Positions 1 through 33,900 of a stretch of DNA of 64,000 bases are shown piece after piece; the stretch's first letter is position 1, and every line of letters begins with the position of its first letter. The notes beneath the pieces were generated by a model. The model made no database searches. It was given only the letters and a program-made list of their open reading frames with translations, and was not told the DNA's origin. Source of the DNA: Okamejei kenojei. Taxonomy: Eukaryota. The stretch is taken from assembly GCA_035221665.1 (NCBI GenBank), contig CM069133.1, positions 130,510,001-130,574,000 of the forward strand, written 5' to 3'. The translations under genes were made by a program, and so were the position numbers.

Positions 1-25
1 GTCCATTACATTAATCACAGAATGG

Positions 26-400
26 ATGCTTAATCCAGCAATATTTAAGAATATTGTAACTGAATTTGGTTTACCAGAAATTGATTTGTTTGCATCAAGG
101 CTTAATCATCAATTGCCTAAATATGTGTCTTGGGAACACGATCCAGATGCAGTAGCAGTAGATGCTTTTTCATTGAACTGGGGGAATATGTTCTTTTATG
201 CTTTTCCACCTTTTGCTTTGGTTCAGCAATGTCTGAAGGAAATAGAACAAGATTCTGCCACAGGATTGTTGGTAGTTCCAAATTGGCCAACACAACCTTG
301 GTTCCCATTAATGCTGAATATGATTAAAGAACCATATATGTCAATTCCTAACTGTAGTGATATTTTGATTAATCCAGTAACCAAAAGAAATTTATGCATT
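26..400 (+). pseudogene. DIRS DNA N6-adenine-methyltransferase-like (MT) domain
   Basis: IDLFASRLNHQLPKYVSW...DAFSLNW...YAFPPF...LLVVPNWPTQPWFP, typical of the DIRS MT domain. Confidence 0.85.
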
Positions 401-429
401 ATATGCATATATGAATTTATTAATCTGCA

Positions 430-1439
430 GGTTTTGACCAGACCACTACAGGAGCTGGGATTGTCGGACAAAACTATGGAGGTTATAGTCGCATCATGGC
501 GAGATAACACACAAAAACAATATATGACACATGTTAAGAAATGGGAAGAATTTTGCACACAGTCAAATATTTCTTATGATACGGTGAATATTGCATGTTT
601 GATATTGTGATACTGTGATATTGCATGGAAAATGTATTGGAGCTCCTTGCTAAATTGCATTTTGAGCAACATTTAAGTTACAGTGCTACTAACACTGCAC
701 GCAGTGCCTTATCATCTTATTTAGGACTTATGTCTGACCAGAAATCAATTGGATCACATCCACTAATATCTAGATTCATGAAAGGAATCTTTAATATTAA
801 TCCACCCAAACCTAGATACACAGAGATTTGGGATGTGAGCATTGTACTTACCTTACTTAGACAGTGGACTCCATTGAAAGATTGTCATTGGAAAGATTAA
901 CATTAAAATTAATAATGTTAATATCATTGGTTTCAGCTCAAAGAGTGCAAACTTTACAAATGTTGCGTTTAGACTGTATGCATGTGACTACAGATAACAT
1001 TGTGTTCTATGTTTACGATCTGATCAAACAAAGCAGACCAGGGAGATCTGGAGCTAAGGTAACCTTTCAAGCTTATCCTATTTTGATCCTACTTTGTGTG
1101 TGGTTTAAACATTTGAATCAATATGTTAAAGTTACTGAAACTCTTCGAGGAAATGAAAAAAAAACGTTGATGATTACGCATAAAAAGCCACACACAAAAG
1201 CTTCAGTTCAAACTATCTCAAAATGGTTGAAACAGGTGTTGCTTTTAGCAGGAGTAGACACTGATGTGTTCAAATCTCACTCCACCAGGGCTGCAGCTAC
1301 GTCCGCGGCGAAGGTGCGGGACGTACTACTCGAGCATATTTTAAAAAAATGGAGTAAAGAAGAAACTTTTTCAAAGTTCTACAATAAACCTGTTCACACT
1401 ATGACAAGCTTTGGCCACGCGGTGTTGGGATCAATATAA
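430..1439 (+). pseudogene. DIRS tyrosine recombinase, frameshifted over three ORFs
   Basis: N-terminal SAM-like part (SWRDNTQKQY..KWEEFC; SYSATNTARSALS). Catalytic motifs SAQRVQTL (R), KQSR (K), KSHSTR (HxxR) and FYNKP (Y). Breaks near 600-625 and 864-900. Confidence 0.9.
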
Positions 1440-1706
1440 TTACCTGCTTTGTATACTATTGATTACTATAACCAAGTTATGTAGTCACTTATATCTTTTA
1501 TCACTTGTAATCATTCCCTCGGATATAAGGAGGGTTATATGTTCTTTAAACCATTAAAAAGTTAATTATGGAAAGAACTAATATTAGTCTGGTTTCTCAT
1601 GTATGTATTTACTTAGCCGGACTGTCGTACTAATTAAATACTACGACATAAAAAACACAGAAAGCTTTAAAATCTTCACGTAGTCACTCACGTGACTCCG
1701 AAGTAA

Positions 1707-2016
1707 AATAGTAAGATTAAACGAGAACTTACCAGTTCGAAGTTTGATCGTTATTTTATGAGGAGTTACGATGAGGGATTACGTGCCCTCCACTCCCACC
1801 CTCATAAAATAAATGATCAATCTGGTAGTTCTAAGTCTTTTATGAGCCTTACTATGTTACTTCGGCTGTTTGGTGTTCTGTGTTTTTCATGCCGCTGCTT
1901 TGAAGTATGCCGTTTGCCAGCGTGAGGCGGGGTTCTTCACGTAATCCCTCATCGTAACTCCTCATAAAATAACGATCAAACTTCGAACTGGTAAGTTCTC
2001 GTTTAATCTTACTATT
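1707..2016. repeat. Perfect 79-bp inverted repeat: ICR (1707-1785) vs 3' terminus (1938-2016) of DIRS copy A
   Basis: aatagtaagattaaacg...gagggattacgtg is the exact reverse complement of cacgtaatccctc...cgtttaatcttactatt. Confidence 0.95.
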
Positions 2017-23314: not shown

Positions 23315-23902
23315 ACGGTTCCCGAACTCAGGGATTTTTTGTTGGTATTAATGAATACATTATTGTTTTTCAGCTCTGTTACGTCTGAAATACGTTAACA
23401 CACTTCCTCCATCAGTTATTACGGCAGTGTGTGAGCATGGACGTGGTCTAGGGCATGAAATCACAGAGCTTTGAAATCTTCACGAAGTCACTCACGTGAC
23501 TCCGAAGTATAATAGTAAGATTAAATGAGAACTTACCAGTTTGAAGTTTGATCCTTATTTTATGAGGAGTTACGATGAGGGATTTTGTGCCCTCCGCTCC
23601 CAAACCTCTATCATAAGGTCAAGTGGTATATGGTTTCCCTTAATCTTACTATCTACAGTCAGTTCTGCTATCTGTGATTTCACACCGCTGCTTTGAAGAA
23701 TGTCACGTATGCGTGCTGGCGGGGTCTTCCCGAAATCCCTCATCGTAACTCCTCATAAAATAAGGATCAAACTTCAAGCTGGTAAGTTCTCGGTTAATCT
23801 TACTATCATATTGAATGGCGGTGCAGGCTCGCCTGCACCTATTTTCTATGTTTCTATGTCAGCTGGTGTTAGCTGTAGTTAACACCCACACGCTACCATT
23901 TT

Positions 23903-30212: not shown

Positions 30213-30422
30213 TGTAGGTTGATGTTGCATGTTAACCAATCACACACCAGCCAGCATCTCTAACTCCACCCCACTGTAATACTTGTATTAACACTTGTTT
30301 CCCAGCACGGACAGTTGGAGCAGCCAGGATGTACTGACAACTAATCATCCTTCATGCTGTGAAGTTTCAGTGCTGATTAAAGATGTATTAGAATCACGTA
30401 CTGAGTCTGGAGGTCGTTTACA
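30213..30422 (+). repeat. 5' LTR (210 bp, TGTA...TACA)
   Basis: Matches 33354-33514 with few mismatches; attaaa signal near its 3' end. Confidence 0.9.
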
Positions 30423-30440
30423 TGGTGTCAGAAGTGGGAT
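30423..30440 (+). promoter_or_regulatory. Primer-binding site complementary to the tRNA-Leu 3' end
   Basis: tggtgtcagaagtgggat immediately after the LTR's terminal CA; complements ...AUCCCACUUCUGACACCA. Confidence 0.85.
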
Positions 30441-30966
30441 GAATGGCATTAGTGACCTAAAGCTCAGATCAGAGCTTCTGAGACGGCCAGATTTGACACT
30501 GGATGAGGCAGCGCATGCATGCAGAACAGCAGAATTCATCGACCCTATAGACAGTTCGCACAAAACCAAAACCATCCATCTGACGGGCCTCACTAGGCAG
30601 CGAACCAACACTGATAACAGGCGATTTATGACCCAAGCTAGTCAGGCGGCTCTTGGCGATCCTCAGAAGAAATGCCCAAATTTCAACTACTCACACAGCA
30701 GACAATCAGCTTTCCCCACTTTTGGTAAATCATGCAATTACTGTATAAAAAATCACTTTGCCTCTGCATGTCGGGCAGCAAGTCGGGCCAGTGGGAAGAA
30801 TTCCCCTAGCGTCAGGTCTAACCTCAATATCTTGCAATGAGACAGCAACAATCTCTCTCCCCATTTCCAGTTCGAATCTGCCCCCGAACAGAGTCCAATT
30901 AACTCACAAGAGGACCCGACTGTTTACTCGTTACAGCTTGCTGCTGCTAAGAATTATGATCCGACC

Positions 30967-33136
30967 GTGACAGTAACTGTAAACAACGTCCATTTTGGCA
31001 TGAAATTAGATACTGGGGCAAAAGTAAACACAATGTCAATCAACCTCTTCAACAAGATAAAAACTAACAAGCCACTGATCAAGGACAAATCCACTCTACA
31101 TGCTTTTGGAGGGGAGGTGCTGGTGCCTCTGGGCAAAATCAACTTGAAATGGGTGCTGAAAAAAGCCACGAGGAATTTGACCTTCTATGTCTTTAACTTT
31201 AATTCAGTTACTCTGCTTGGCAACTGGGCCTGTCAGGAACTGGGGCTGATCTCCTTTGACAAAACGGTCCACAAGCTGCAAATTTCCCTGGACCCGCTGA
31301 GTTAATTCCCTGATCATTTCGACAATAACCTGGGCAAGTGCGGGAGTTGACAAAAAAAAGGACACAGCATGGACATGGCTCAAGCAACATCAGATTGCTT
31401 TCGATGTTTTAAAGTCCAAACTGACCAGTGCACTGACCATGATTTTTCTTTTTTCCTGAAACGTCGGGTAACGATCACCTGCGATGCTTTGAAATTCGGG
31501 CTCAGCGCTGCCTGCTTGCAACCATCTGCCGAGGGGACCCTACTACCTGTCTCGTATGCCTCTCGCACCATGACCGACATGGAGCAGCACTACGCGCAAA
31601 TCGAAAAGGAACTGTTGGCTGTCGTCTTTGCTTGCTCCAAATTCCAAGACTTGATCTTTGGCAACACCTTCATGGTCGAGACGGACCACCAACCACTAGT
31701 AACAATCCTGAACAAGCCCATCCACGCCGCGCCAGCTCGTTTGCTGCGTATGATGATGCAGCTGCAGCGGTACAATTTCTCTATTACCTACACTAAGGGT
31801 AAGGACATGCACGTCACTGACACTCTCTCCCATGCACCTCGGGCATCTTGCGAACAACATCCCCATGAACAGAAAAATGTCATGGTCCTCGGTGTCAATT
31901 TCATCTCCAGCAAGTAACTGCGCACCTTGGCCACGCACACCGCCACTGACGATACGCTTCAAATCCTCTCCTCCATCATCAAAACAGGCTGGCCAGACAG
32001 ACAATCCAACACGCTCACAGTGGTGCAGCCTTTCTTCCTGGTTCGTGATGAACTGGTAGTTCAGGATGGGGTTGTCATCAAGGGTCACAAGGTAGTGATA
32101 CCCTCATCGCTACAAGACGCATACTTCAAAGAGGCACACAGCGGTCACCCAGGAGCCGACGCCACACTGGCACGTGCCCGTAGTCTGTTCTACTGGCCGG
32201 GAATGGCCAGTTACATCTGGGACCGCGTAGCCTCCTGCCCCGCTTGCAACAGCCTTGCGCCTCATCAGCAACGACTTCCACCAGCTCTGCCTCTGGACGT
32301 CGCTGGCGGCAGACATTTTCGAATGGTGCGGGAAGCACTACCTTGTTCTAGTCGACTCCTTTTCTAATTGGTTTGAACTGGACCAACTGACCTCACTCAT
32401 ATCTGAGATGGTCATCCCGAAGCTGAAAAGACACTTCTCTACCTTTGGCTCTCCCGTCAGCCTGAGAACTGACAATGATCGGCAGTTCATCAGCCACATG
32501 TTCAGGCTTTTCGCAGACCGATGGAACTTCCAGCTCGTCACGAGCAGTCCCGAGTATCCACAGAGTAATGGACTCGCTGAACGCGCTGTCAGAAGCGCCA
32601 AACACTTGCTGGAGCGAGCACAGATTTCAAAGTCAGACGTTTATCTCGATCTCCTGAATCTCAGAAACGTTGCCAGGGACGGAACCCTGGGATCGCCGGC
32701 ACAGCGACTGATGTTGAGATTGACGAGGCCTCCGGTACCCATCGCACAGTGGCAACTGGTCCCTCAGGTGCTGAAGCCTGCCACTATCCAGAAACATCTA
32801 CAAGAGAAGCACGATATCCAGAAAAGGTCATACGGCAATTCCAGCAGACCACTCAAGCCTCTACGTCCGGGTCAGGTCGTCCGCCTACGAACCTCAACTG
32901 GACATTCCCGTCTGGGCACTGTTGTCAACCCGACTGACGAGCCACGGTCTTACCTGGTAGACTGTGAGGGAGCGGTATACCGGAGAAGTCGACAACACCT
33001 GCTTGCTGTGAGGGAGCCTCGACCACCGCCTGCTGGTCCCTATGCTTCACTGCTCCAGTTCCAGCCGCCTTTTGCAATGTCTACCACCCGTCCCCGCATG
33101 TCTTGCACCCCTCCATGTCCCGCGGTTCTCCACTAA
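30967..33136 (+). pseudogene. Gypsy pol remnants: protease, RNase H, integrase
   Basis: MKLDTGAKVN; PVSYASRTMT...YAQIEKELLAVVFA; EAHSGHPG..C..C; ADIF..TDN..PQSNGLAERAV. No YxDD RT core between protease and RNase H. Confidence 0.9.
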
Positions 33137-33342
33137 CCACGGGGCCTCAGCCAACGCATGTTTCCCCTTTCGGTCACCACAAGCTTCCACCACGTCATTC
33201 TCACCTCCAGGCTCTCCATCTCATCTTTCAGGTGAGGGGTGGGGGGAGGGTTTGGTCCGCACGCACTCGAGCCGTGTTAGTAGACCACCAGACAGATATG
33301 GCGAGTATGTTTAACCCCATGGCTCTTCCACACTTAATCCTT

Positions 33343-33514
33343 AGGGGGAAGGATGTAGATTGATGTTGCATGTTAACCAATCACACACCAGCCAGCATCT
33401 CTAACTCCACCCCACTGTAATACTTATACTAACACTTGTTTCCCAGCACAGACAGTTGGAGCAGCCAGGATGTACTGATAACTAATCATCCTTCATGCTG
33501 ATTAGTTTCAGTGC
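33343..33514 (+). repeat. Polypurine tract (33343-33353) and truncated 3' LTR (33354-33514)
   Basis: agggggaagga then tgtagattgatgttgcatg...; LTR homology stops at tttcagtgc. Confidence 0.88.
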
Positions 33515-33897
33515 CCGTACAGCCGTTGGTGCGTCGGTCTGCGGCGTGAATTCACAGTGCTTTGAAGTCTTCACGTAGTCACTCACGTGACTCCGAAGTA
33601 AAATAGTAAGATTAAACGAGAACTTACCAGTTTAAAGTTTGATCTTTATTTTATGAGGAGTCGAGTTGAGGGACTACGTGCCCTCCGCTCCCACCCTCAT
33701 AGATCTCATCTGGTAGTTCTAGTTTTATCATCTTACCATTATACTTCAGTCATTGTTAGCTGTGAATTCATTCCGCTGCTTTGAAGATTGACGCACCAAC
33801 GGCTGTACGGGCTTCTATTCACGTGGTCCCTCAACTCGACTCCTCATAAAATAAAGATCAAACTTCAAACTGGTAAGTTCTCGTTTAATCTTACTAT
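33513..33897 (+). mobile_element. Non-coding DIRS terminal module (copy C), possibly a miniature non-autonomous DIRS
   Basis: ICR about 33600-33680 vs terminus 33820-33900. Perfect 23-bp inverted pair 33513-33535 / 33790-33812. No ORF. Confidence 0.8.
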
Positions 33898-33900
33898 TTT

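Follow-up and report, generated by a model that had tools for sequence, protein, structure and literature searches.

A putative conserved unit of clamp stem and twin octamer at the 3′ ends of a clade of short-ITR DIRS1-like retrotransposons

The 3′ ends of a clade of short-ITR DIRS1-like retrotransposons appear, from sequence comparison, to share a conserved unit composed of an outer stem (the P1 clamp), which encloses the ICR, and of two copies of an octamer motif. It was recognised in a stretch of 64,000 nucleotides from Okamejei kenojei (GenBank assembly GCA_035221665.1, contig CM069133.1, positions 130,510,001 to 130,574,000 of the forward strand), referred to here as the window. A preliminary description of the window had drawn attention to a hidden, degenerate partner of the ICR in the adjoining spacer and had proposed a hairpin acting as a timing switch; what it had found was a lineage-specific part together with the edge of the conserved core. 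Since the hidden partner is mostly missing in distant DIRS elements while the outer stem is kept, clamp and twin octamer are taken to be the conserved unit, and the hidden partner an addition in the host lineage. The local structure is a genuine cis structure that looks selected, within a retrotransposon family already known.

The 5′ region of the window holds the 3′ end of a short-ITR DIRS1-like element that is dead as to coding; the 5′ end of this element, the partner of the left ICR (lICR), lies ~2.4 kb upstream of the window. The order of parts is lICR, right ICR (rICR), spacer, right ITR (rITR) and extension. The features of this element, and of two further copies of the 3′ module in the window, are:

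2..610, + strand: pol/methyltransferase remnant of the DIRS element; open frame, weak PCIF1-like match, tblastn match with an RT-MT-YR relative (40%)
861..1439, + strand: C-terminal remnant of the tyrosine recombinase (YR); Phage_integrase match at E 1e-5, under the curated cut-off
1643..1662, + strand: 5′ arm of the outer stem (P1 clamp); pairs with 1876-1895 in the fold, two-sided changes at 4/9 core pairs, equivalent in distant elements
1665..1672, + strand: octamer 1, CTTTAAAA, pattern CTYTRAAR, adjoining the left ICR on its 5′ side
1673..1709, + strand: left ICR (lICR); complement of the element's first 37 bases, 100% over 37 nt (5′ end at L031:3623)
1707..1785, + strand: right ICR (rICR); complement of the last 79 bases
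1707-1709, + strand: circle junction overlap, 3 bases common to lICR and rICR
1764-1785, + strand: predicted toehold, the part of the rICR unpaired with the degenerate spacer copy
1786..1801, + strand: C-rich tract directly after the rICR, present in distant elements too
1800..1865, + strand: degenerate circle-junction copy (the hidden partner), in the host family; weak or absent in distant relatives
1876..1895, + strand: 3′ arm of the outer stem (P1 clamp), from the fold and two-sided changes
1898..1905, + strand: octamer 2, CTTTGAAG, 1 nt before the right ITR
1907..1970, + strand: right ITR (rITR), ~64 nt, 89% match with the 5′ end (65 columns); the inner part matches the left ITR, the outer part is divergent
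1971..2016, + strand: right extension, ends ATT
23445..23807, + strand: copy B, 3′ module of another subfamily
33536..33899, + strand: copy C, 3′ module of another subfamily

The coding remnants agree with this assignment. A broken YR remnant lies near the 3′ end, as in DIRS1-like elements, and is 48% identical to one relative; its relatives are found in skate, brittle star and abalone (40-58%), the closest named being that of skate (58%). The RT/RNase H/methyltransferase pol region is represented by a tblastn match with an RT-MT-YR protein (P0003) covering its residues 72-294 and 471-742 in broken frames. The window copy retains RT, MT and YR frames, all of them broken, and no ORF of at least 100 aa is left in the 5′ half. 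The 5′ end is present in 18 of 20 fetched copies of the window subfamily and carries the inverted complement of 1907-1970; the two ICRs are complementary to both ends and overlap at the 3-base junction. All 18 copies end in ATT and in most the 5′ ATT is common to the flank, with no longer duplication seen by eye.

In other subfamilies most copies have an rITR of approximately this extent. The spacer was considered as part of the ITR and rejected because no 5′ match enters it: matches end at 1907, and in other-subfamily regions, 16 of 20 of which have a 5′ match, none extends into the spacer. The local hairpin is thus not part of a canonical DIRS ITR, a possibility that the preliminary description had named as counting against it. 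Among the subfamily copies with both ends, 17 of 18 lack a frame longer than 213 residues, the remaining one being a longer copy with extra sequence, and module identity reaches 99-100% among the top copies with broken frames, these having been chosen by module. With near-identical 3′ modules and broken frames, the window subfamily (L031-L050) is probably a non-autonomous lineage. The genome contains 12,723 exact occurrences of one 30-mer from the ICR/terminus.

Several other features were observed in and around these elements. A further DIRS 3′ module (subfamily D) lies at L031:1956-2294, ~1.3 kb upstream of the 5′ end of the window element. Just upstream of copy C, positions 30292-33363 hold a decayed gypsy-like element with protease, RNase H and integrase matches, which is not DIRS body, and positions 2339-2537 hold a 199-base near-perfect palindrome (94%) in which a common short repeat occurs twice, head to head. 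The terminus includes a splice-donor-like GGTAAGT (1987-1995), at which the spacer copy (1822-1829) is one A short in most subfamilies. AATAAA occurs in the spacer of the window subfamily (1807-1812), in the terminus of subfamilies C and D and in neither place in B; it is not a consistent polyadenylation signal.

The pairings reported in the preliminary description are present in the sequence. Its ICR, which was the rICR only (the lICR is 1673-1709), is the reverse complement of 1938-2016 at 79 of 79 positions and the match cannot be extended. The spacer pieces that it listed match the reverse-complemented ICR over an alignment span of 1800-1894, the pseudo-junction (1848-1865) agrees with the circle junction at 17 of 18 positions, and complementary outer-stem words are found as 12-mers in copy B (23456/23671) and 11-mers in copy C (33547/33760). 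The local hairpin is also far more stable than its controls: 1640-1900 folds at -86.5 kcal/mol compared with -51.3 +/- 3.7 for 60 dinucleotide shuffles (z -9.6), and z lies between -7.3 and -9.9 on both strands with RNA or DNA parameters (60 shuffles each). All 31 representative copies, extracted out of 35 wanted and drawn from many subfamilies, fold strongly, with z of -2.9 to -11.7 on the plus and -4.1 to -12.3 on the minus strand (20 shuffles each). The spacer pairs best with the 5′ half of its own copy in 23/31 (plus RNA), 27/31 (minus RNA) and 22 and 23/31 (DNA) cases, a result reached in 0 of 20,000 permutations uncorrected for kinship.

Covariation, which had been put forward as a check, was observed, and it resides largely in the outer stem. 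Four pairs of its nine-pair core show two-sided Watson-Crick swaps. In one alignment (A1) the covariation score was 0.066, compared with 0.042 in shuffled alignments (0 of 500 reached it), while the number of pairs changed on both sides, 7 versus 4.8, lacked significance (53 of 500 shuffles). All seven of these pairs belong to the outer stem and none to the inner helices, which are poor in signal, the ICR being nearly invariant. A tree was built from 135 of 231 anchored modules, six rearranged loci being left out first and young subfamilies thinned, with anchor filters that favour conserved helices; on it, same-branch double changes numbered 9 against 3.0 expected, although a single copy, whose register has probably slipped and which is also part of the null, accounts for three of the nine. 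On the inner branches there were 3 against 0.56 expected (p 0.012). In the spacer, conservation was 0.80 for paired and 0.65 for unpaired columns (p 0.002, the columns not being independent).

The junction helix provides one further case. A T to G change at 1712 in one subfamily (168 pattern matches) is a three-way change that involves ICR, spacer and terminus. Where the ICR has G at 1712 (n=30), the spacer partner is C at 20 loci, A at 4, T at 2 and unreadable at 4; the four loci with A are sporadic, belong to other subfamilies and have an unchanged terminus. An ICR T is matched by A in the spacer in 190 of 208 cases. The 1712 change is a single event, yet it is a transversion on both sides.

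Nine distant 3′ ends were compared: a metagenome contig, L251 (YR 35%), and DIRS contigs of one bacterial metagenome assembly. Distant YRs are ~35% identical (four measured), and eight of the nine elements come from that single assembly, giving three independent sources in all. The assembly (G001; L312-L344, L403-L410) holds 26 YR matches on ~4-7 kb contigs, at least 10 of which are DIRS of the window's clade; these contigs are most likely host contamination. A 5′ end was found in 6 of 8 distant contigs. The distant elements have ICR motifs and the C-rich tract in common with the window, and the outer stem is present in nine of nine, in one of them once a spacer inversion is undone; its arm sequences are unrelated among the elements. 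For the arm-pairing comparison L320, L322 and L328 were excluded as incomplete, and the 3′ arm of L321 was taken from the contig end; an element's own arms paired better than all cross pairings (mean -8.7 kcal/mol) in all 10 elements on the minus strand and in 9 of the 10 on the plus strand. The one that failed there, L324, carries its spacer flipped, and its arms pair at -14.7 once the flip is read back. Such a flip, between two long inverted repeats, was also observed in a full-length host copy (L317:5412-5719; G000:C1, at the locus of L199); the flipped spacers may reflect template switching, recombination or an assembly error.

The octamer, CTYTRAAR, follows each clamp arm. The lICR starts exactly 8 nt after the start of octamer 1 in all five distant elements whose lICR matches their own 5′ end, and the rITR starts exactly 8 nt after the start of octamer 2 in four of five; in the window the octamer-to-lICR offset is 0 and the octamer-to-rITR offset 1 base. 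The inner ICR:spacer duplex behaves differently: against z -7.0 for the window, L251 has -2.0, seven further elements range from -0.3 to -0.7 and one was unscorable. Of the conserved local hairpin that had been claimed, the outer stem is therefore clade-wide, but the hidden ICR partner is not general, being absent from seven of eight testable relatives and weak in one. Nor is the clamp and octamer unit universal in DIRS, because the assembly G001 also holds a second YR clade, with 14 loci, in which both the ICR core and the paired motif are missing; the outer stem was not seen by scan in this clade's one element with both arms. Viral contigs gave no YR relatives, and the module was found in 0 of 58 pattern matches.

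These results bear on the timing switch of the preliminary description, according to which the ICR stays locked in the inner local hairpin up to the moment when the terminus displaces that hairpin, this order being the selected function. When the region is folded with a growing 3′ end, the inner helices are predicted to adopt two folds, the local one flipping to the distal one once the 3′ end passes 1961-1964: the local fold has a probability of ~1 until 1961 and is gone by 1964-1967. Mutually exclusive folds are thus predicted for the inner helices, and two states are plausible there. The spacer tracks its own ICR, and nearly all of the right repeat is missing from the DIRS-1 transcript (PMC7192593, partial text), so that a terminus-free state may exist. 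The competition with the ICR:terminus duplex that had been claimed for the whole hairpin is nevertheless confined to these inner helices, the outer stem having 0 bases in common with the 79-bp distal duplex. Sequestration of the ICR is likewise only partial: most of the lICR and the last ~22 nt of the rICR are unpaired with the spacer. Moreover, the delay would be only ~70 nt if the transcript runs through the terminus, and in the seven relatives without the inner partner an ICR self-hairpin can fill the loop. Under this model, timing as the selected function seems to us distinctly unlikely.

This self-hairpin, lICR:rICR, represents a third fold of the ICR. From sequence-only alignments RNAalifold returned it on the plus strand, and the outer stem with the junction helix on the minus strand; the whole hairpin was not recovered. 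The minus strand folds lower than the plus strand in 30 of 31 host copies, and strand preference among the distant outer stems is split (5 plus versus 4 minus). The direction of wobble changes on the tree was 10 versus 4 on inner branches and 24 versus 29 at tips; this skew could come from CpG decay and is too thin for assigning a strand.

A possible origin of the hidden partner is offered by three run-on copies (L315:8158-8245, L316:7939-8007 and L318:4828-4940), in which the terminus is followed by 68-112 bases complementary to the copy's own lICR and the sequence upstream of it, past the clamp. Such run-ons fit what is expected if fold-back extension sometimes fails to stop there, and they could postdate integration; the hidden partner may have come into being through a fold-back run-on of this kind. 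Their interpretation as insertions into the ICR of another copy is unsupported for L315 and L316, whose 5′ flanks were verified as normal, and a spacer inversion once supposed in L216 was rejected, this being a run-on as well. The inner partner might be nothing but a relic of fold-back duplication, kept ICR-like by templated correction during reverse transcription and without function of its own, while the clamp may still function. Run-ons of exactly this form (terminus, lICR complement, upstream complement), the restriction of the hidden partner to one lineage and the order of the two-step compensations on the tree, in which the 3′ side changed first in three of three, all fit templated correction or duplication. 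Correction alone should however lead to a perfect palindrome or to decay, and the helices are conserved around loops that vary in sequence but keep their places; the octamer positions are not explained either. We consider the relic reading unlikely, with templated correction nonetheless a serious rival explanation for the inner partner.

The pseudo-junction could also follow the ICR without pairing with it, as a double-stranded DNA site, either a second recombinase binding site or a decoy target. An element of the window subfamily was observed inserted exactly at the pseudo-junction in the spacer of a copy of another subfamily (L040/L010; L040:3228-3417 and flank after 8342), which would suit such a site. 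Had the site evolved together with the specificity of the recombinase, the three-way change at 1712 could be understood as well. The insertion is the only one of its kind among 236 screened 3′ ends, by estimate compatible with chance, and on this count the pseudo-junction was rejected as a preferred insertion target. A DNA site leaves the outer stem unexplained, and we regard it as very improbable.

We give about an even chance to the reading that clamp and octamers form a scaffold, keeping the two templates for end repair close to each other and signalling the points at which copying begins, ends or jumps. The ICR lies within the clamp, and each of the two stretches that are copies of the left end is flanked by an octamer. 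When the terminus pairs with the rICR, the clamp would persist as a pseudoknot: clamp and distal duplex leave loops of 44 nt (lICR) and 42 nt (inner rITR), which we estimate to be long enough to span the distal duplex in this way. Nested folding, which cannot represent pseudoknots, loses the outer stem once the distal duplex forms. The lICR and the inner rITR would then lie side by side, and reverse transcriptase might copy one and jump to the other via their common 10-mer; an enzyme copying the plus strand would have octamer and stem immediately in front of it. The acting strand may be RNA/plus or minus cDNA. In the host lineage the ICR would be zipped up with the extra degenerate junction copy as a long hairpin for as long as the terminal arm is missing; once present, the arm could displace that copy, starting from the open toehold. 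We infer that this copy is a local reinforcement, not the core mechanism.

Clamp and octamers might instead act on the RNA in other ways, in 3′-end formation, cleavage, packaging, RT loading or the prevention of long double-stranded RNA by the ICR. A stem closing a domain of 160-280 nt is a typical RNA handle, and the clamp closes a domain in this size range; in four distant stems most wobble pairs suit the plus strand (by eye). An RNA role alone does not explain an octamer at each template edge. A search of Rfam gave 8 matches, all far under the gathering threshold (best E 0.22), and hence neither a known structured RNA family nor a match above chance. In DIRS-1, first-strand synthesis is not blocked by ICR deletion (PMC7192593, partial text). 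Such a role is in our view quite improbable. 

A bolder form of the scaffold reading, which taken as a whole we think unlikely, would have a widespread DIRS clade rebuild its ends on a pseudoknotted scaffold by a plus-sense, self-templated route to the left end. The 3′ end would fold back on the rICR, extend along the lICR and halt at the octamer before the clamp, then jump to the adjacent rITR and halt at the second octamer; the skate-like lineage would add a toehold-gated lock on the ICR. This plus-sense route differs from the textbook minus-strand model.

The account of how DIRS elements restore ends that their transcripts lack rests on a model of 1985, and the available experiment demonstrates a need for the ICR, not the steering of jumps (PMC7192593, partial text). 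A conserved stem with a twin motif at both template edges offers specific bases to mutate and predicted copying stops. It also provides a way to recognise the ends of the clade after its genes have decayed, as in the window subfamily.

In retroviruses and hepadnaviruses, reverse transcriptase is helped to jump by base-paired cis elements, which bring the donor template close to the acceptor. Sequences and geometry are unrelated to those described here, and the likeness is an analogy of working, not membership. Dictyostelium DIRS-1, for which the Cappello model was proposed, resembles the window element in having an ICR complementary to both ends (PMC7192593, partial text, as for the following statements on DIRS-1). 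Its transcript lacks most of both repeats, its cDNA intermediate is single-stranded and its ICR is required for retrotransposition at a step after first-strand synthesis. Its ITRs are ~320 nt, unlike the short ITRs here, and the sole hairpin mentioned in that part of the text is one of 14 nt near the 3′ end, proposed as a primer.

In the literature covered, including parts of PMC9210276, PMC2685390 and bioRxiv 10.64898/2026.05.21.726589, an ICR stem or twin motif was not found; clamp and twin motif are apparently undescribed, their novelty being provisional. Likewise, the partial text of PMC3266345 and its supplements describe no ICR-enclosing stem, twin octamer or degenerate spacer junction copy. 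The elements treated there are nevertheless the closest in anatomy: the short-ITR DIRS1-like AcaDIRS1/2, LgDIRS1/3 and NveDIRS6b (PMC3266345, Table 3, partial text) have the same order of lITR, lICR, rICR, rITR and right extension (rE) and, as in the window, a 3-base junction overlap, an ATT end and a 10-mer common to ITRs and ICRs. Their sizes are close as well, the window element and the Aca/Lg elements having, respectively, ITRs of ~64 and 66-70, extensions of 46 and 48-49, and ICRs of 37+79 and 39-45 + 86-88 (PMC3266345, partial text).
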